Positions 2,265 to 41,634 of a DNA stretch of 64,000 bases are shown here, piece by piece. The notes under the pieces are model-generated. The model was not told the origin of the DNA and made no database searches. It was given only the letters and a program-made list of their open reading frames with translations. The DNA is taken from sequence record OR836606.1; one strand, 5' to 3'. Source of the stretch: Staphylococcus phage LY01. How positions within the stretch are numbered: the first letter of the stretch is position 1; every line of letters begins with the position of its first letter. The position numbers were made by a program, and so were the translations under genes.

Positions 2265-4493
2265 TTGCTTATTCGTGATGTAGGAAATAACAATATGGGT
2301 AGAAATGATGTACCTGAAATGTCTGATGAAATAGAATATTCCAAGACGAATAAAATATTACTTAATAATATATCAGAATGGTATTTGTTTGAAAAACAAG
2401 CGATCTTTAGTTTACCATTACTAAAAAAATATGAAAATGTGCTTAAAAGAGATTTAATAGATTATGATTTACCAAAATCATATCACTATAGACCTGAATA
2501 TCTATCTAATGAATTATATGGAACTACAGATCTTTGGTATCTTTTACTTTTCGTCAATGATATGCAAACAGTTGATCAATTTAATACAGATACCGTAAAA
2601 ATTTTTCCAGAGGTTGTCATTAATAGTTTAAATAAGATTATTAATGAAGAAAATGAAATACTGGGCACTGAAAATAACCCTAAACCTATTTTTAAACATA
2701 TGATGAAAAGTACTGAAGAAAAATCAGACAGAGTTACTCCGGGATATAACGATCCTAGAATTATACCATTTGTACCTGAAACTGACTTTGAAGATAAATT
2801 AGAAAATATTACTTCAGATAGATACTTAAGAGAAAGACATGAAGTTCACGAGCATAAATTCTATAGACCTGATACGGATAATAAAGATTTGGTAGAGCCA
2901 TTTACACTTAATAATGATGGTTTAAGAACTCTACCACATCTATTTTACAAAAAAGGTTTTTCACGTAAATTTCAAGGTAAAATGTATTTTAAACCGGGGG
3001 AAAGGTATTTATTTGCGCCTTTACAAAATGGTATGTCTAAATTAAAAATAACAGACCGAAAAGGTTTTAATATAATTAATGCTACAGAGAACTATCAATT
3101 TAAAGCACCTACAGCTATATTTGATTTAAGAAAAGCTAATGATGAAGATGTAAGTCATTCTAATCTTGAATCAACAAGATTATCTTCAGTAAGTTTTAAT
3201 CAAGAAACCGGTTTATATGAAGTTAAAGGAGATATTTTAAGTAAATCTGATAAAGAAGATGAAAATTCTGCATCATTTGTTAAAATAACTTTAGATGATG
3301 AAAATGAAAATCCTAGAATGAATATTAAACGTTTATTAAATTATGATTTCTTTGCATTTAATATGGGGTATTCTACGAACTTTAAAGATAATAATCACCC
3401 TACGGCTAAATTAGTTTATGATATCACATTAACATCAAATACTGGTAAAGTTAAAAAAGTAAAGAATATATTCCCTTCAAATAATAAAAATTATAACACA
3501 CAAGGTCAAAAATCATATCTTAAACATATGATGTACAATATAAAGAATATTAAGAAAATGGAAATAGAAGTTAAATTAACAGATTTCATTGATAATGTTG
3601 ATCCAAATGAAATAATTCAAGTTAGTTTAGATGAATTTGAAATTGCAGGAGTTAGTCATAAAGAATTCGATAATACATTTATTGTAACTAAGGAAGATTG
3701 GTATAATATCGAGCTAGAATATAATTATTCACTTAAAAATCCAGATGGGTCGGATTATTTCTATGATGAAAGTAGATCAGGAATATATTTTAATCCTATG
3801 ATAGTTGCATTGAGATCATATGGTACATTTCCTGTAAAAACTCAAACTTATACTGGATTTTATAATAAAACTTTATCTAAACAATCGTTAGGTAATTATG
3901 GGTATATTAGTTTCATGGAAGGAACAACTAAATTTGATGATGACGCATTGAACTATGTGTATAGTCAAAACTTTAAATTCCCTAAAAATTACATTATGAC
4001 ATTTAAATTAATTAATAAGAATAAAACTGGCGGAGCAGGAATTGTATTCGATTATAATACTCAACTTAATTCAGGTTATATGTTTTGGATATCTTCTCAA
4101 CAAGAAAATTGGGATGTTCCTTACTTTGATTTGAATGATGAAGATGTTATGACAGATCCTGACCGTATCATGAAAACTGGTTTCTATGAAATTGATAAAG
4201 TATTTGGAAAACCTAAAGAATTATTCCAAGATGAATCAGAAAAACAATTATTTGTTACTAATCACGTTCCATTGGATATTAATAATAAATATATTAAAAT
4301 AATTAAAAATGAAAATAGAATTAGAGTATTCATAGATAAGAATAAAAATTTTAATTACCGTAAACCAGATATCGATATTAAAGATATTGAAAATATCAAT
4401 ATGGAAGGTAAAATGGGTTTCATTTCTGCATTTTCAGGTTTAGAAGTCCAATTCGATAGTTATTATGAATATAAAGATAAATATGATGACTAA
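2265..4493 (+). CDS. Hypothetical protein (742 aa, N/K-rich); start may be TTG 2265 or ATG 2295
   Basis: Long uninterrupted ORF; AGGAAA RBS before ATG 2295. Confidence 0.55.
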   Translation: MLIRDVGNNNMGRNDVPEMSDEIEYSKTNKILLNNISEWYLFEKQAIFSLPLLKKYENVLKRDLIDYDLPKSYHYRPEYLSNELYGTTDLWYLLLFVNDMQTVDQFNTDTVKIFPEVVINSLNKIINEENEILGTENNPKPIFKHMMKSTEEKSDRVTPGYNDPRIIPFVPETDFEDKLENITSDRYLRERHEVHEHKFYRPDTDNKDLVEPFTLNNDGLRTLPHLFYKKGFSRKFQGKMYFKPGERYLFAPLQNGMSKLKITDRKGFNIINATENYQFKAPTAIFDLRKANDEDVSHSNLESTRLSSVSFNQETGLYEVKGDILSKSDKEDENSASFVKITLDDENENPRMNIKRLLNYDFFAFNMGYSTNFKDNNHPTAKLVYDITLTSNTGKVKKVKNIFPSNNKNYNTQGQKSYLKHMMYNIKNIKKMEIEVKLTDFIDNVDPNEIIQVSLDEFEIAGVSHKEFDNTFIVTKEDWYNIELEYNYSLKNPDGSDYFYDESRSGIYFNPMIVALRSYGTFPVKTQTYTGFYNKTLSKQSLGNYGYISFMEGTTKFDDDALNYVYSQNFKFPKNYIMTFKLINKNKTGGAGIVFDYNTQLNSGYMFWISSQQENWDVPYFDLNDEDVMTDPDRIMKTGFYEIDKVFGKPKELFQDESEKQLFVTNHVPLDINNKYIKIIKNENRIRVFIDKNKNFNYRKPDIDIKDIENINMEGKMGFISAFSGLEVQFDSYYEYKDKYDD

Positions 4494-9851: not shown

Positions 9852-12800
9852 TTGGCTAAAAATAATAAAAATAAAAAGAATATTAGACAATTAGAAAATA
9901 ACAATAAATCAACTGTTATTAAAAATTCTTCTAAAAATACCGGCCGTATTCTTTTTAATGCGTTTATAAAATCTAACCCGTCATTAGATGCTATAGTGGG
10001 AGATTCAGGTTTAAAATTATTTAACAATGATGAAAGAAGATTAAAAAATTTTTCTGAAGTTAAAGGTTCTACTAATGATCTAATAAAAACTTTAAAAAAT
10101 AAATCTAATGAAAACGATCTTTTTTCAAGTAGTAATGAAAAATTATCTAATGAAAAACCTGAATATGAATCAGTAACAGAATATATTGATAATCCTGATG
10201 GAACTAAATCTGAAATTGTTAGTCTGTCAGATAAAAAGAAATCTAAAATAACAAATTCACCTCTAATAGCGATGAATAATTTGGCTGAGATAAATCAAAG
10301 AGGATTTGTTGGAACGAATATTGCAATGAACAATTATTCTCTATCAATACAAGCAACTAATAGCCTTATATATTCAGCCTTATCAAATTTAAGTACAATA
10401 CAAAATGGTATATATCAAAATACTCTAATGGAAGAAAATACTAAAAGAGATAAACAATCTAAATTACAATCCATAATAAATGGAAATATTAGTTTATTAA
10501 AATATTTAGATGAGAAAACTAATCCTGAAAATTTATTAATGGGTATGATGACCGGAGAACAACTTAAATCAATGTTAATGGGAGTAGCTAAAAACCCTAT
10601 TGAATTTGCTGCAACTCAAGGAGCTAAAATTGCATTTAATAAACTTCTATATGGTGATATTGGCGGGTATGATCCTGAAGGTAGTAATAAAAACATATTT
10701 AACAGATTGAATAAAAGATTTGATCCTCAAAATATAGGATCTATGCTTATTAATAGAAATCTTGTTGAAGATAATAAACTTACTAAAGGTTTAGAAAGAT
10801 TAACCGGTAATGATAATAAGTATATATCTAATTTAGGAAATGCTCTTTCAGATAGACTAAATCAATTAAAAGAAGAAGTATTGGGTGACGGTAAGGGCAG
10901 TATTTCTCTAAAAAATAAACGTAAAAAAGATACTCCGGTTCAATTTGATATGGAATCTCATACGTCTATTAATAAAGTTATACCGGACTTCTTATCTAGA
11001 ATTCAAGGTAATTTGATAGCTAAAAAAGAAGGTCGTTCAGGCGGATTAGCAGATAATGCTGAATTAGGTAGTATTTATAATTATCGAAAAGGTATTTGGG
11101 AAAATCGAAGATCTGCTAAGAAAAATGCATTAGATGAAATTAAATCAGAATCTTTATTCAATTTTAAAGATACTTATTTAGGTAAAGAATTATTATCTAA
11201 ATTAGATAATGATGAAGAAAGAACTAAAGAAGTTTTAACTGAATTAACTAAAATAGACAAACCTATTAAAGAAATTTCTAAACTTAAAGAGATAATTAAT
11301 CAAAAAAATATAAATGTTAGCACTGAATCATTATCGGAAGTGTTTGAAAAGAATTCAGCTAAATTCAATACTGATTTATTCAATATTAAGAAATCTATTT
11401 CAAATACTCTTGATAAAAAAGATAATTCAAGAATAATGTCATTTACTGAAATAGAAGGTTTAAATAAATCTAATTCAACATATTCTAGATCTAACAATGA
11501 TGATGATATTAATCAGATTAAAGATTTTGGCAATATTAACTGGGAAAATAGTGATTTAGAAGAAATTAAAAATATTTTCTTAGAAATAGAAAGAAAATTA
11601 AATAATGACTTCAGTAGCGGTAATATTAATAATAATAAAGAATTTATTAATAATAAAGTCGATACAATCAATAATATTATAGACAAAGGCAAAATTTTCT
11701 CTGTTTTAAGTGGGAATAATGAATCTCATGCTTCTGTAATGGATAAGTTAAATAGTCTTTCTAATGCAGTTAATAAAGCTAAAGAATATAAAGAAAATCC
11801 TACAAGTGCTATTAAAGATATAGCCTCTTCCTTAACTAACAGTGTCAGTCTTCCTCAAGAAAACAACCAATTAATGCGAAATAATGAATATCAATATCAA
11901 AATGTAAATCATCAATCTAGCATTATAGATAATAATCCAGTAATGGATTTAATGAATAATATTCCCGTCTTAAATAGTTTAACGATTAATAACAATGAAG
12001 CTAATAAAGATGCTTACATTAAAGAACCAAGTAAAACTATAGATGATTTAACCAAAGAAGAAAAAGAAAAGAAAGCTAAAAGCACGATAATTGATTTAGT
12101 TAACACTGCTTTTGGTAATGACCCAACTATTAAAAAAGATATGGAAGATTCCCAAGATACTGGAGCTTTAGAAAGAATGAAACAAGGTCTTTCAACTGCT
12201 GATGCTGGAAAACTTGGAGAAAATGTTATGTCTACAATGACTGGGTCTAGTAAGAAAGAAATTGCTGAATCTATTAGAGGTAATATAAACTTTGGAAAAG
12301 GCGGAGAAGCTGAGAAATCTATTGGCACTAAAAAGATGATGAACGGAATGCTTGATTTTAGTAAAATGGGACCAGTTTTATTTGCTGGAACTTCTGCAGC
12401 TGTATTAGGTTCATTAATGAAAGGTAGAAATAGTAAGAAAGATTTAGAAGTCAGTGAAAAAGGATTTTTATCATCTGCTGGAGGATTTTTAGGTAACGCC
12501 GCTATGCTAGGTGCTGGAGGATTCTTGGCTGCTAAATTTGGTCCTAAACTATTATCTAAATTATTACCGGGTGGAGTAGGTAAATTCTTCACTAGTATGC
12601 CTGGTATGTTAGGTAAAATAGGCGGCGGAATTAAAAATATAGCTGGGAAATTTGGATTAGGAAAATTATTTAGAGGTATTAAAGGTGCTCCTAAAAAAAT
12701 AGGTAACGTATTTAAAGGTATTGGAAAATTTGCTAAAGATAAACTACCTACTGTTAAGTCTTTAGGTAAAATGGTTATAGGTAAAGGTGCAGGATTGGTT

Positions 12801-37693: not shown

Positions 37694-38098
37694 TTAATCT
37701 AATAGATTCATTATTCTTTTTGATTTCTGATCTGGAGAAGAATTGTTATTCTGTAATAAAGGATTACTAGGGAGATTACCATCAATAATTCCACTAATAC
37801 GTTTCATGGATGCAATATCTTTTCTTCTAGCTTGTCTTTCTTTTTCAATTTCTTCTGCATTATCTCCATCTGCAGATACCATTGAACCGTATTTAACTTT
37901 AACAAATTTCTTAATGTCTTTCTCATAGTAATAAGCATATAAACAAAATAGATAACTCATAAGTAAATCGTCATGTCCGCCATCAGGGTGATCAATTCTA
38001 CCTTTTTTCATTTGAAGGGATTTTATTTGTTGGAATAATGGTTTATTATTAACTAAATAAGGTTTTTCTTCAACAATCATTGATAAAATTTCATTGAG
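37694..38098 (-). CDS. terL: Terminase large subunit, final exon (nuclease-domain C-terminus, GGHDDLLMS)
   Basis: HPDGGHDDLLMSYLF resembles the terminal catalytic Asp motif of TerL RNase-H-like nucleases. In frame upstream only to 38119, so a 3' splice site lies at ~38099-38119. Confidence 0.6.
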   Translation of the reverse strand, partial: LNEILSMIVEEKPYLVNNKPLFQQIKSLQMKKGRIDHPDGGHDDLLMSYLFCLYAYYYEKDIKKFVKVKYGSMVSADGDNAEEIEKERQARRKDIASMKRISGIIDGNLPSNPLLQNNNSSPDQKSKRIMNLLD

Positions 38099-38099
38099 C

Positions 38100-38286
38100 A
38101 TTAGATCTGCTATATAAATTCATGAGTTTAATTTAATTAAAATGAATTTATTCGACTTCGTCATCACTCTGACTTACTTTGCACTTTAAGTTTTTTCGTT
38201 ATAAACTACTTCAACAGAAAGCTTTAATCAAAGCAGAGGTTAAAGCTCTTAAGTCATCGCATTTGGACATTTAGAGGAATAAGACC
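38100..38286 (-). ncRNA. Predicted TnpB omega-RNA scaffold / IS right end, with the guide abutting terL exon 5
   Basis: Immediately 3' of the tnpB stop; stem-loop AGCTTTAA-n12-TTAAAGCT plus further structured sequence; an omega-RNA is expected for IS605 TnpB loci. Confidence 0.4.
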
Positions 38287-39456
38287 TCATTTAGCCTGCC
38301 CAACAAAACGCTTACCATACAGTTTTAAATTGACAGCAGCGTTATAATCTCTATCCATTTTATGTCCACAATCACAGGAATACCATCTATCTGATAGTTT
38401 CAACTTATCTTCTTTAGTTAGAATTTGGCCACAATTAGAACATAATTGAGTTGATGGAAACCATCTGTCAGCTACAATAATAGTATTACCATTGCTTTCA
38501 GCTTTTTGTTCAAGTAAAGTCCTAAACTGTCTCCAATTGGACTGTGCGATTGATTTGGATAGTTTTCTATTTTTAATCATATTTGAAACCTGTAAATCTT
38601 CAATAGTTATATATTGATAATTGTTAATCAAGTTAGTAGTAATCTTATGAAGATAATCTTTTTTAATATTATTAATTCTATACCATACTTTTTGTATTTT
38701 GGTTTTCAATACATTGTATTTATTAGAACCATAAACTTTTTTAGATAATCTTTTTTGGTAGTATTTGATTTTATTATAGAGTGAGATTAGTTTATTATTT
38801 AATGAATGGTATTTTTTAAATTTACCGAAATCATCATTAATAATAGCTAAATCTTTTACACCTAAATCAATACCTACATGACTATTGTTATGAATTAATT
38901 TTTTACTGTTATCAACTTTCATTACTATCGAAGCGAAATACCTACCAGCATATTTGGATATAGTTACTTCTTGTATAGAATTATAATCTTTGTTTAAAGG
39001 TTCTTTCATTTTAATTAATGAATTTACACCACGCAATTTAAGTTTATTATTTTTCTCACCTTTAATTTGAATAGCGTAAGGATCTTTCCTATAGAACCTT
39101 GCTCTTAATTTAGATTTCTTTTTAGATTTAAATTTAGGATATTTACCATATCCTTTCCACATCATATTAAATGCTTTACCTAGATCTTCTGTAGAAGTTT
39201 CAATTATCATGATAATTTGATCTTTCTCCCAATCTTCTTTACATTTTTTAAGTTCATCACGAACTCTACGATGAGTTGGTTTTGGTAAAGATTTATCAAT
39301 TTGATAATTATTCCACATATATTTCCATTTATTAAGTGCCTTGTTATAAATATAACGACTATATCCAAAAGCTTGATTAAATATCTCTCGTTGTTCTTTA
39401 TTAGGTTTCAATTCGATTTTTATAGATTTGTACATGTGATTTTCACCTCGATTCAT
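38287..39456 (-). CDS. tnpB: TnpB (IS605 OrfB family RNA-guided endonuclease)
   Basis: N-terminal ELKPNKEQREIFNQAFGYSRYIYNKAL. RuvC-I HVGIDLGVKDLA, RuvC-II ITIEDLQV, zinc finger CSNCG...CDCGH, RuvC-III DRDYNAAVNL. Confidence 0.9.
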   Translation of the reverse strand: MNRGENHMYKSIKIELKPNKEQREIFNQAFGYSRYIYNKALNKWKYMWNNYQIDKSLPKPTHRRVRDELKKCKEDWEKDQIIMIIETSTEDLGKAFNMMWKGYGKYPKFKSKKKSKLRARFYRKDPYAIQIKGEKNNKLKLRGVNSLIKMKEPLNKDYNSIQEVTISKYAGRYFASIVMKVDNSKKLIHNNSHVGIDLGVKDLAIINDDFGKFKKYHSLNNKLISLYNKIKYYQKRLSKKVYGSNKYNVLKTKIQKVWYRINNIKKDYLHKITTNLINNYQYITIEDLQVSNMIKNRKLSKSIAQSNWRQFRTLLEQKAESNGNTIIVADRWFPSTQLCSNCGQILTKEDKLKLSDRWYSCDCGHKMDRDYNAAVNLKLYGKRFVGQAK

Positions 39457-40037
39457 ATTTCTAAATGATTTAGAATTTATAATTCATTGTTTAATATATC
39501 GAGGTAAAAATTATTTTAATTAAATTAAACTCACGAATTCCAGAAATCCCTTTCAGGTTCTGTTAAATAGCAAGACTATATCATGATCCATTAAATCAAT
39601 GGACCCCTCGCACTTCGAAAAACTTCTGATGAAGTTAATCTACTCTACTCACTTCACATAGTATTTCAACTATGCTTATTCAGGTTAATCAAACCTGTGC
39701 TTTCGATAGTCGTTGAACGTTTATCCATCATGTGGACACTTCGCTGCTAGACTTCCCATTGTTTACAAACTTTAGCGATCTAGGGTTTTCACCTAGACTT
39801 GTTTTCAGCATAGTTCATCTTAGAGATTTTTTCTGTCTTTCGACTGCATGTCACGCTATCCATTACTGGCATACGTTGTAGCTCTCTAAGCTTTAGGGTT
39901 TTACAAGCAATTCACGAGGTATTTTTACCACTAATTTCATGAATTAAAATTAGTTTAATTTACTTATATAGTAGCAGAGCGTGAAACATGAATTAATAAG
40001 AATTTAAGTCTTAATTCACTTAAAATATCTTAAATTA
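39457..40037 (-). ncRNA. Group I intron ribozyme portion of the IStron
   Basis: On the minus strand: P GAATTGCTTGTAAAACC, Q AAAACAAGTCT, R GTTCAACGACTATC, S CATGATATAGTCTTG. Confidence 0.65.
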
Positions 40038-40877
40038 AAACTGTTTCGTTACTCTAGATTTTTTAGTTGTATCAATACCATATCTTCTTACTTGTTTGGT
40101 AACTTTATTAGTGCTATTTCTAGGAATTTCATTAAATACTTGCTTATTAACTTCAACTTGTTTTTCTGCTACTCTATTCTTTAATGAGTAGAAAATATTG
40201 TCTCCAATACCATCAGTTTGAATCATATCTTCTATCATTACAGTACCTGCATAGTTACGTTCAGGTATTAATACTGCATTAGGTATATAAAGCGTAATAA
40301 GTTCTTTAATTAATTTTCTAAAAGTAGGTCCATTAATTACATTATTTTGGAAAATCATTACAGGCTCTAATGTACCTGGATCAACTACAGTAAATGCAGT
40401 ATTATCTCGACCAAGACCACCAGATATATCAATACCAACAAGCCAGTTCTTTTCATGCATATTATCCATCTTTTTAACCATATAAACATAATAAGTTTTA
40501 CCATTTATTTTAAAATCAATAGTATTATATATCTCTTTATTTGCATATAATGATAATTCTGACATTTGTTGTTCATCAAATAAAGAATCATCGTTACTAA
40601 ACGCCCATTCAAGAAGTATCTCACGTTTAACTGCTTCTAAAGAACCAATTTGACGTTTTTGCTTTTCTAACCAAGCATCATCTTTACCTAATTCTTTATA
40701 TGAATATTCTATATAGATGAATGAATTGCCTGAATTACTTTCCATATACTCTTCTAATTTTTCATTACCCTCTTCTTCAGAATTAATGTAATAATCATAT
40801 ATTTTTTCTGTCCATTGTGCTGCATCATTCATTTGCTCAAAGAAGAACTGTCCTTGAGGTACATCCAAAGTACTCAT
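40038..40877 (-). CDS. terL: Terminase large subunit, exon 4 (nuclease domain). The 5' end (3' splice site of intron A) lies near 40877-40890
   Basis: LVGIDISGGLGRDNTAFTVVD RNase-H-like nuclease motif. PQGQFFFEQMNDAAQW resembles TerL PNGxNhFYdiW. Ends ...VTKQF followed by TAA, the first codon of the IStron. Confidence 0.7.
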
Positions 40878-41035
40878 ATTTTTTATCCTATATTAATTTA
40901 ATATAGATAAGACTATATCTTAGTATATTATAATACCATTTATTATTTAGTCGTTAAACAAGTATTATCAACTTGATGCTGATTGTCTTAATAAAGATTT
41001 TCCAGCAATTAAATAAATAAGCCCAGTTTAATTTT
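40878..41035 (-). ncRNA. Miniature group I intron A in terL (~150-158 nt)
   Basis: Minus strand: IGS GGGC pairs with exon GCCU. P AATTGCTGGAAAA, Q ATCAGCATC, R GTTTAACGACTAAA, S AAGATATAGTCTTA; P3, P5, P6 and P9 hairpins identifiable. Confidence 0.7.
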
Positions 41036-41107
41036 AGGCGTTGTTGTAATTAGAAGACCATAAGGTGTGCCATTTTTCTTAGCTATTGCAGATGCTGTAG
41101 AAACTGC
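41036..41107 (-). CDS. terL: Terminase large subunit micro-exon 3 (72 nt; AVSTASAIAKKNGTPYGLLITTTP)
   Basis: In phase between introns B and A; contains the TerL motif III ITTTP. Confidence 0.65.
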
Positions 41108-41267
41108 CTTTTAATATTAATCTACATGGATTCCATATAGAATAGACTATATCTTAGTATTATATTAATACTATTTATTATTTAGTCGTTGAACACTATA
41201 AATAGCGATGCTGATCGTCTTAATAAAGATTTTCCAGCAATTAAATAAATAAGCCCGCATTAATTTC
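41108..41267 (-). ncRNA. Miniature group I intron B in terL (160 nt); ~90% identical to intron A
   Basis: P, Q, R and S elements present. 5' splice site after AGGCCU with IGS GGGC; 3' end ...TTAATATTAAAAG. Confidence 0.7.
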
Positions 41268-41330
41268 AGGCCTCATTGCTTCAAACATTGTTTGGTTGTG
41301 TGGAATGAATGCCCACTCATCCAACCAGAC
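41268..41330 (-). CDS. terL: Terminase large subunit micro-exon 2 (63 nt; VWLDEWAFIPHNQTMFEAMRP = Walker B)
   Basis: hhhhDE-aafIP Walker B signature of TerL ATPases; in phase 0. Confidence 0.65.
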
Positions 41331-41634
41331 CATAGGTCATTATGTTAACTATATTTAAAAAATATAGATCAGACTATATCATACTCATATAAATAAGTGA
41401 ATATATTTAGTCGTTGAACACTATAATTAGTGATGCTGATTAAGATAATAATCTATTCCAGCAATTAATATTCTTTTACTACTGCAACTATCTACAGTAG
41501 AACCACGCTATTTTAGACTATATCTTCAATTTTATAATTGTCTTTTATTTAGTCGTTGAACACATATGTGATGCTGATCAAATTAAATAATTTGTCCCAG
41601 CAATTAAAAAGATTTATAGCAAGCCATGATATTA
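41331..41634 (-). ncRNA. Composite intron in terL: two tandem group I cores (D at ~41480-41634, C at ~41331-41500) with no exon between them
   Basis: D: the intron starts TAA after the exon ...AGCAGGT, IGS GGCTTGCT, P/Q/R/S, P9 ctactg..cagtag. C: P AATTGCTGGAATAG follows immediately, then Q/R/S/P9. The 3' splice site was chosen to restore the VWLDE frame. Confidence 0.55.

Follow-up and report, generated by a model that had tools for sequence, protein, structure and literature searches.

The C. botulinum IStron (CboIStron; IS607 family) carries a 5′ group I intron core, tnpB, and a right-end omega-RNA whose guide is taken from the exon flank. Its TAM is TGGG and its own end is TCGG, and position −3 was shown to discriminate between them; published work on IStrons also covers homing by TnpB plus omega-RNA and an omega-RNA that overlaps the 3′ splice site (Zedaveinyte et al., 10.1101/2023.11.20.567912). 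IStrons in C. botulinum phages and IStrons with ORF B only have been catalogued (PMC4227781). Group A IStrons insert at TTGAT... and end in TCAG. For group B (IS607-type) IStrons the insertion site is GG, the end is CGG, and pairing of the −1 G with C has been described; a 2026 review considered that intron homing could spread TnpA-less IStrons (PMC13565253). Clostridial IStrons and the conflict between guide and intron were thus known beforehand, and homing of TnpA-less IStrons had been proposed but not shown. Neither for terL nor for a lytic jumbo phage did we find such an element described in the literature.

Phage group I introns with homing endonucleases invade intron-less alleles in mixed infections, and the flanks are co-converted. 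The T4 td/I-TevI, Twort, and SPO1 introns resemble the element described below, each being a self-splicing intron within a conserved part of an essential gene, with a nuclease ORF in a peripheral helix. However, phage homing endonucleases are proteins reading 14-40 bp, whereas recognition by the present element would depend on an exon-derived RNA guide plus a short TAM.

The DNA analyzed here (the window) is a stretch of 64,000 nucleotides from Staphylococcus phage LY01 (OR836606.1), with ~92% nucleotide identity to Staphylococcus jumbo phages of the S6/MarsHill/PALS_2 group. Comparison with the uninterrupted terL of S6 (L002 3125-5158), combined with direct sequence inspection, gave a corrected terL gene model of six exons, with the element between the last two:

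42276-41635, minus strand: terL exon 1.
41507-41494, minus strand: terL exon 2, a 14-nt micro-exon.
41337-41268, minus strand: terL exon 3.
41107-41036, minus strand: terL exon 4.
40874-40052, minus strand: terL exon 5, from blastn/tblastn against S6 terL; its 3′ end reads ...AAA UCU AGA G.
40051-38107, minus strand: IStron insertion of 1,945 nt without tnpA, from junction mapping.
38106-37694, minus strand: terL exon 6, stop codon included, from comparison with S6 terL and the spliced CDS.

Translation of the six joined exons gives a TerL of 677 aa that aligns with S6 TerL without gaps at 96.9% identity. A protein search with the exon-6 product gave no matches. The exons on either side of the element had been numbered 4 and 5 in an earlier note on this DNA; they are exons 5 and 6, the micro-exon having been missed. 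According to the S6 terL alignment and the translated spliced CDS, the junction is ...AAATCTAGAG, ending at 40052, joined to ATCTAATGCTC, starting at 38106. Exon 6 therefore begins with AUCUA at 38106, upstream of AUG, and the uninterrupted sequence to be recognized is ...AAA UCU AGA G/AU CUA AUG CUC AAU GA.... When the element was removed in silico by joining 40052 to 38106, the terL ORF was restored, i.e., the borders of the element coincide with the predicted splice sites, their exact positions being ambiguous by a common G/AG. A 5′ splice site after U (UCU/AGAG) was rejected because any G-terminated 3′ site resulted in a stop codon or loss of conserved residues. The insertion was absent from this terL site in all nine sequenced relatives.

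Within the insertion, a group I intron core is followed by an intact tnpB and then by a conserved structured RNA at ~38301-38107. We consider, with moderate confidence, that the insertion is a TnpA-less IS607-type IStron whose tail switches between splicing and formation of a TnpB guide RNA, which would enable homing.

The earlier note placed the element in IS605. Evidence on family comes from Listeria phage LPJP1, which has the same intron core, a Resolvase-domain ORF (L174 892-1521), tnpB, and the same RNA, in that order. Judged by its domain, this ORF encodes a serine recombinase of the IS607 TnpA type, and LPJP1 carries an autonomous relative. Both LY01 junctions have the dinucleotide AG (GAG/ on the left, CAG/ on the right), and the 5′ exon ends in G. 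The LPJP1 serine recombinase, the G end of the 5′ exon, and AG at both junctions argue for IS607 rather than IS605. No tnpA was found in the LY01 window, and the gap between ribozyme and tnpB is only ~100 nt. In the absence of a serine-recombinase gene in the window, the LY01 copy appears to be a non-autonomous, ORF-B-only IStron of IS607 type. Assignment to IS200/IS605 (group A, Y1) was rejected: the left flank UCUAGAG is not TTGAT-like, there are no TnpA remnants, and the exon is not T-ended. The NCBIfam models did not decide the matter, both scores being below cut-off (IS200_TnpB 259 bits, cut-off 425; IS607_TnpB 184 bits, cut-off 350).

Instead of the group B hallmarks, a GG insertion site (AGGG/TGGG/GAGG) and a CGG 3′ end, the LY01 element has GAG and CAG; it is therefore a sequence variant of group B outside the described subgroups. 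Those group B IStrons that carry ORF B only, such as CsISt1 (Tourasse et al. 2014, PMC4227781), are similar to it in having a group I intron with only a TnpB-type ORF, IS607 affinity, and no autonomy, but the LY01 family inserts after GAG, ends in CAG, and resides in jumbo phages. Group A IStrons (CdISt1, C. difficile) share the combination of intron, TnpB, and omega-RNA in the tnpB 3′ UTR and a ...CAG terminus; however, they have a TTGAT-like pentanucleotide site, a T-ended 5′ exon, and Y1 TnpA remnants. CboIStron corresponds to LY01 in its order of parts (5′ group I core, tnpB, right-end omega-RNA with exon-flank guide), in a 5′ exon ending in G, and in a TAM that differs from its own end at −3, G versus C. 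It differs in that LY01 lacks tnpA, has junctions GAG/...CAG/ as opposed to TGGG/...CGG/, and encodes a distant TnpB. The hosts also differ: LY01 is a lytic jumbo phage, probably with uracil DNA, whereas CboIStron resides in a plasmid-like prophage.

The features of the intron part are as follows:

39975-39979, minus strand: internal guide sequence CUCUG, by sequence reading; inferred partner of exon UAGAG (helix P1, G-1:C).
39554-39956, minus strand: group I intron catalytic core (Rfam RF00028, full model).
39718-39699, minus strand: R box (GUUCAACGACUAUCGAAAGC), of classical type.
39584-39574, minus strand: S box (AUGAUAUAGUC), of classical type.
39567-39573, minus strand: UUGCUAU, just 3′ of P7, P9.0-type partner of the last 7 nt, AUAGCAG.
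39508-39540, minus strand: segment X, 5′ arm of a 33-nt long-range stem around tnpB, an inverted repeat with 38149-38117.
38116-38149, minus strand: segment Y, the dual-use tail, forming a local hairpin (omega-RNA form) or a 33-bp duplex with X (intron form).

RF00028 matched 39956-39554 with 26.1 bits (E = 1.3e-4), below the gathering score and in a 581-nt search only; no Rfam match to a group I intron was obtained over the whole window (gathering threshold) or over 5 kb (E ≤ 10), and detection required reduction of the search space to <1 kb. The core is kept upstream of tnpB in nine relatives (L004, L006, L007, L008, L163, L165, L167, L176, and LPJP1). CUC of the internal guide sequence can pair with GAG, with the G at −1 opposite C, and relatives whose exons end in GGAG carry CUCCC at the corresponding position. 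The AGA codon at the LY01 junction also contributes to P1 pairing. The LY01 element is predicted to be self-splicing.

The nuclease gene is located between the arms of the long-range stem:

38287-39435, minus strand: tnpB, 382 aa, starting with ATG after GAGGUG, with Pfam, NCBIfam, and PDB matches.

The ORF extends from 39456/39435 to 38287, with the stop codon at 38289-38287. LY01 TnpB has the Pfam domains OrfB_IS605, Cas12f1-like_TNB, and HTH_OrfB_IS605, scored 236 bits against NCBIfam guided_TnpB (cut-off 100), and matched solved TnpB structures in PDB with E = 1e-41 to 1e-49. ISDra2 TnpB (PDB 8H1J, 8EXA; E = 6e-41) has the same fold and RuvC triad positions, and its guide RNA likewise comes from the tnpB 3′ end plus right end; however, ISDra2 belongs to IS605, has Y1 TnpA, uses a TTGAT TAM, and lacks an intron. 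The RuvC residues of LY01 TnpB lie in GIDLG (D190), TIEDL (E279), and DRDYNAA (D361/D363), and the zinc finger CxxC...CxC is complete, with both cysteine pairs there. By these motifs the triad D190/E279/D363 and the zinc finger are intact, in agreement with the earlier note, which had seen no catalytic RuvC substitution. The corresponding ISDra2 triad is D191/E278/D361. The database entry for the protein, 100% identical, is annotated "mobile element protein [Staphylococcus phage LY01]". LY01 has two diverged TnpB copies; the second (P0002), 81% identical, was sought on contigs and not located on any. A TnpB-based scan of viral contigs gave no matches.

Homologous elements were taken from metagenome contigs, and their tnpB 3′ regions were aligned (alignments A1-A3). 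The RNA was conserved in 11-13 elements, and covariation was evaluated over 11. The following features were defined:

38107-38301, minus strand: predicted omega-RNA scaffold, 195 nt, from alignments A1-A3, RNAalifold, pair counts, and model R1.
38295-38292 (GCUA) with 38112-38109 (UAGC), minus strand: closing, pseudoknot-like helix of the consensus structure.
38288-38274, minus strand: scaffold stem-loop of the consensus structure.
38256-38251 (UGACUU) with 38158-38153 (AAGUCG), minus strand: long-range helix of the consensus structure.
Inside 38149-38116, minus strand: terminal hairpin of the consensus structure.
Minus strand, no coordinates given: variable stem-loops of the consensus structure.

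The scaffold comprises the last 15 nt of the tnpB ORF plus the 180 nt between the stop codon and the terL exon; its 5′ end is uncertain and could reach ~38310. Conservation spanned the last tnpB codons to ...AUA(G/U)(G/A)CAG (...AUAGCAG in LY01) and ended there abruptly: mean pairwise identity was 73% for the last 20 nt inside the elements versus 32% for the first 20 nt outside. In a comparison of the two clades, synonymous sites in tnpB were constrained only from codon ~376 onward; the conserved RNA therefore begins at ~38310-38301, reaching back ~24 nt into the ORF. The RNAalifold consensus had 5 helices with 31 base pairs, 17 of which showed compensatory changes, coming largely from two clades and representing few independent events. 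On the named structure 94.7% of cells were paired versus 79% in shuffles; none of 500 shuffles equalled the observed paired fraction or covariation score (remaining counts: 0-5/500), and a control in which helix partners were slid by 1-3 columns gave 38-51% paired. The closing helix GCUA:UAGC, which stops 2 nt short of the guide, covaries to GUCA:UGAC.

R1, a covariance model built from the alignment, scored 137.6 bits at the LY01 locus; it found one copy per tnpB in the window and no other matches. LPJP1, which contributed no sequence to R1 and has a TnpB with only 41% identity to that of LY01, also matched R1 over its full length at the tnpB 3′ end (89 bits, E = 3e-16). The case for the RNA is comparative; taken singly, the LY01 sequence shows no folding advantage over its shuffled versions (z = −0.94). 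The Rfam 15 curated omega-RNA families, searched at the gathering threshold and at E ≤ 10, gave no match, and Rfam may lack such a family. Motif scans for the RNA in viral contigs and genome contigs gave no matches or chance matches only, and none of 120 loci from a metagenome motif scan proved genuine on inspection. The Machias TnpB (38% identical) was considered as a relative with the same RNA and rejected: no R1-type RNA was found, and it therefore belongs to another family. No terminator was seen between tnpB and exon 6 in a promoter/terminator scan that is uninformative in such phages, which use their own RNA polymerases. The conserved scaffold, the covarying helices, and the R1 match in LPJP1 bear out the core prediction of the earlier note, an omega-RNA at the tnpB 3′ end; region 38301-38107 has the anatomy of a TnpB omega-RNA, which would be expressed, processed, bound by TnpB, and used for guided cleavage.

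Directly after the CAG end, the 13 family members have mutually unrelated flanks (13/13). The LY01 RNA would extend into the right flank, and the recognition elements would be:

38091-38106, minus strand: predicted guide AUCUAAUGCUCAAUGA of 16 nt, taken from the very start of terL exon 6, directly after the CAG end.
40052-40054, minus strand: GAG, probable TAM and exon strand of intron helix P1, adjoining the 5′ side of the element.

The guide length (16 nt, perhaps 20 nt to 38087) was derived from known TnpB systems. The start of the downstream terL exon had already been proposed as guide source; the exon was correct, but the register was off by 5 nt. Because the junction maps to 40052/38106, the guide begins 5 nt upstream of "ATGCTCAATG", i.e., at 38106 and not at ATG. 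The proposal that "AAACAGTTT" supplies the TAM fails, since this sequence (40046-40038) lies inside the element and the real left flank ends in GAG at 40054-40052; for the same reason, joining the two flanks named there would not rebuild uninterrupted terL. These errors arose because ORF ends had been used instead of splice sites.

Left flanks ended in GAG at all seven mapped junctions of the family (LY01 UAGAG, L163 UGGAG, L008 AAGAG, L167 GUGAG, L165 AAGAG, LPJP1 UGGAG, L176 AGGAG), and right ends were CAG in 13/13 elements. GAG is therefore probably the TAM of the LY01 family. An empty site thus has GAG ahead of the target, and the occupied site has CAG; the two differ at position −3, which parallels TGGG/TCGG in the C. 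botulinum IStron. The resident copy is predicted to be protected, as had been proposed, because the insertion separates the TAM from the target by 1,945 nt and because the end of the element is CAG, not GAG.

The earlier note also expected the guide to target IStron-free terL alleles of relatives. The sequenced empty alleles, from nine phages ~80-94% identical, do not support this: 9/9 have CGTG at the TAM position, where LY01 has AGAG, and 1-3 mismatches in the 16 nt. The Arg codon at the junction is CGT in all nine and AGA in LY01, a two-base synonymous change. In MarsHill and Madawaska 15/16 target positions match, with the mismatch at position 11; the remaining alleles match at 13/16 (3 mismatches). 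The protein sequence of the target segment is identical across relatives. No natural target with a perfect TAM is known among the nine alleles, and viral and genome collections yielded no further terL alleles across the junction. Known IStron-free alleles may thus resist, having GTG for GAG plus 1-3 guide mismatches, and the TAM-position codon makes homing into known relatives doubtful. The CGT/AGA difference may mean that the element entered a GAG-bearing allele, that AGA was co-converted, or that the empty alleles are TAM escapes. No second phage was found with the same IStron at the terL site; homing at terL is therefore without direct support.

These data bear on an alternative that we regard as unlikely: TnpB and the omega-RNA are functional, but the element, having reached a GAG site by serine-recombinase transposition or arrived with co-converted exon sequence, is stranded at terL and inherited vertically, since circulating relatives lack the TAM that it would need for homing, its nuclease being a relic or rarely used. 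The replacement of AGA by CGT exactly at the junction in 9/9 empty alleles would fit, as would the occurrence of 13 family members at 13 different sites, as transposition predicts, and the existence of an autonomous relative with TnpA. However, the window encodes no TnpA, the ORF and the RNA are without decay, the empty-allele sample is the nine sequenced relatives only, and a sister lineage shows recent same-site spread without TnpA.

In this lineage (L157 type), six phage contigs carry an element at the same site. The element differs between contigs at 1-6 positions in ~1,430 nt (0.07-0.4%), whereas its flanks and adjacent genes differ by ~3.5-10%; the TnpB element is thus 10-60 times less diverged, and over 21 kb no other extended run of 300-nt bins is near-identical. 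On the right side divergence returns 22-33 nt past the end, just beyond the guide-length segment; on the left side there is a low-divergence tract of ~550 nt. L157 and L163 are too diverged for an empty-site comparison to set the left end of the L157-type element. Homing with co-conversion predicts such a pattern, which could also come from ordinary mosaic recombination. The proposal of TnpB-mediated homing made in the earlier note thus gains a population signature in a sister lineage, but the known terL alleles lack GAG; homing of the LY01 IStron is plausible.

The 3′ end of the element covaries with two other segments. The last seven nucleotides are AUAGCAG in the LY01 clade and AUGACAG in the other clade; the J7/9 segment changes with them (CUGCUAU:AUAGCAG versus CUGUCAU:AUGACAG), and, at the tnpB stop codon, so does the 5′ segment of the scaffold (GGCUA in the LY01 clade, GGUCA in the other). 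From one clade to the other the three segments change in concert. X and Y form an inverted repeat at 31/33 positions (39540-39508 versus 38149-38117), and an equivalent pairing with other sequence is present in L004, L006, L007, and L008. The X:Y duplex is incompatible with the local terminal hairpin of the scaffold. These comparative data show that the intron 3′ end can take part in both a splicing fold and an omega-RNA fold. As in CboIStron, pseudoknot-type pairing beside the guide overlaps nucleotides of 3′ splice-site recognition; splicing and guide formation would therefore be mutually exclusive, the same conflict as was shown experimentally for the C. botulinum IStron.

The terL pre-mRNA running through the element would thus have two mutually exclusive fates. 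For splicing, the 5′ group I ribozyme would fold, the X:Y stem and the 7-bp P9.0-type pairing UUGCUAU:AUAGCAG would deliver the terminal G to the core, and splicing at AGAG/...CAG/ would give intact terL. For guide formation, the last ~195 nt would refold into the omega-RNA scaffold, in which AUAGC now pairs with the GGCUA located at the tnpB stop codon; the ~16 nt of exon 6 that follow the scaffold (AUCUAAUGCUCAAUGA) would serve as its guide. Loaded TnpB would cut terL alleles with GAG directly before the target (ATCTAATGCTCAATGAAATT), i.e., IStron-free ones. In a mixed infection, repair off the IStron-bearing genome would then copy the element in, which is homing.

Pairing of the tail with the region upstream of tnpB, pairing of the last 7 nt with ribozyme J7/9, and the lack of a match to an Rfam omega-RNA family would also suit an account in which RNA 38301-38107 belongs solely to the group I intron, as a 3′ domain that combines a P9-type extension with recognition of the 3′ splice site, and TnpB is a passenger lacking a guide-RNA function. 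We consider this improbable. L157-type elements have lost the ribozyme core but kept the RNA beside tnpB, which suggests that the RNA serves TnpB and not the ribozyme alone. Moreover, the 5′ strand of the RNA, located in the region of the tnpB stop codon, shows covariation with the 3′ end, TnpB is intact and present in LY01 as two diverged copies, and the layout is that of the experimentally studied C. botulinum IStron. Use of the nuclease mainly as a weapon (marker exclusion), directed at the essential terL of co-infecting competitors and not at intron spread, is very unlikely: the target does lie in a conserved segment of an essential gene, encoding the same protein sequence in the relatives, and homing endonucleases that kill competitors have been described for phages (PMC13565253), but the TAM and mismatch problem is the same as for homing, and a cut beside a homologous donor normally also converts, so that the two outcomes are not exclusive.

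Under the preferred reading, that of a TnpA-less IStron with a switching tail, the LY01 locus is of value mainly as a clean experimental system. It is a tractable test locus in a cultivable lytic phage, with one intact TnpB, a 16-20-nt guide, and a candidate 3-nt TAM. MarsHill and Madawaska provide near-cognate empty alleles (15/16, GTG), in which one synonymous codon change would yield perfect targets.

In S6 DNA uracil replaces thymine, and MarsHill-like phages are presumed to be the same (10.1101/2020.12.14.422802); TnpB would therefore probably act on U-DNA here. Whether TnpB can cut U-DNA, and whether a T-free TAM is relevant to it, is a matter of speculation. We tentatively suggest that TnpA-less TnpB/IStrons with exon guides and a T-free GAG TAM may carry out RNA-guided homing in uracil-DNA jumbo phages of Firmicutes, some of them as IStrons in essential genes such as terL, cpn60, and nrdD. 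If true, RNA-guided intron homing would here be seen for the first time in a virus in nature, as a super-Mendelian spread of group I introns between co-infecting lytic phages, and the CGT-for-AGA codon in all IStron-free relatives would be a TAM-escape allele. The locus also marks out a TnpB/omega-RNA subfamily for which the substrate may have to be DNA containing uracil.

The Arg codon at the IStron junction of terL (window 40052-40057) is AGA in LY01, whereas it is CGT in all nine relatives, which are sequenced Staphylococcus jumbo phages whose terL has no IStron at this site. CGT was found even in relatives only ~80% identical. The two codons are synonymous and differ by two bases, a change that coincides exactly with the P1 pairing (the intron helix formed with the 5′ exon end) and the presumed TAM.

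Four further group I introns, all very small, were observed in terL (window 40875-41634, minus strand), two of them flanking a micro-exon:
41634-41508, minus strand, small intron of 127 nt
41507-41494, minus strand, micro-exon of 14 nt, CGTGGTTCTACTGT
41493-41338, minus strand, small intron of 156 nt
41267-41108, minus strand, small intron of 160 nt
41035-40875, minus strand, small intron of 161 nt
P/Q/R/S-like boxes were present in all four, and in each case the 5′ exon ends in U and the intron in G. The Rfam group I model RF00028 gave scores of 17-48 bits, under the gathering score, and did so only when the search space was small. Such compactness is unusual among group I introns.

LY01 encodes a second TnpB, P0002, outside the window; it is 81% identical to the TnpB of the terL IStron. 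The closest metagenomic relative is carried by contig L005 (TnpB identity 76%), and the genes interrupted in L005 and LY01 appear unrelated. The right flank in L005 (1329-1334) and the predicted LY01 guide (window 38106-38101) have their first six nucleotides, AUCUAA, in common; this match could reflect either chance or a target preference on the 3′ side.

IStrons belonging to the family of the LY01 element were also found interrupting other phage genes, in metagenome/ENA contigs L165, L004/L006, L163, L167, and L176:
L165 ~2270-3942, IStron interrupting a Cpn60 gene at codon 6
L004, IStron near a split nrdD
L163, L167, and L176, IStrons interrupting unnamed ORFs
In L006, a second group-I-like 5′ region (GUGAAUUGCUUGUAAA...; ~1830-2015) starts ~100 nt 3′ of the IStron right end, a sequence arrangement that suggests tandem introns in the IStron-bearing gene. 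In the TnpB hit list, many ~240-kb ENA contigs appear as sources of at least two distinct TnpB variants each.

Listeria phage LPJP1 (L174, MZ422438.1 219003-223580) harbors an IS607-type IStron that is complete and belongs to the same family as the LY01 element; its insertion site is GUGGAG|...CAG|, 13 nt 5′ of the groL start codon:
L174 ~260-2710, complete IStron (intron core, serine-recombinase ORF, tnpB, and omega-like RNA)
L174 892-1521, serine-recombinase ORF, annotated as "hypothetical protein"
L174 2577-2710, omega-like RNA
Its tnpB is annotated as truncated.

A TnpB element having neither ribozyme core nor TnpA was found in L157-L162 (ENA phage contigs, ~140-240 kb):
L157 ~9879-11316, intergenic TnpB element
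It is 99.6-99.9% identical across contigs, and the flanking genes there are 90-96% identical. A ~550-nt tract of low divergence lies to its left; to its right, divergence returns 22-33 nt past the element end. This pattern looks like a case of recent spread at the same site.
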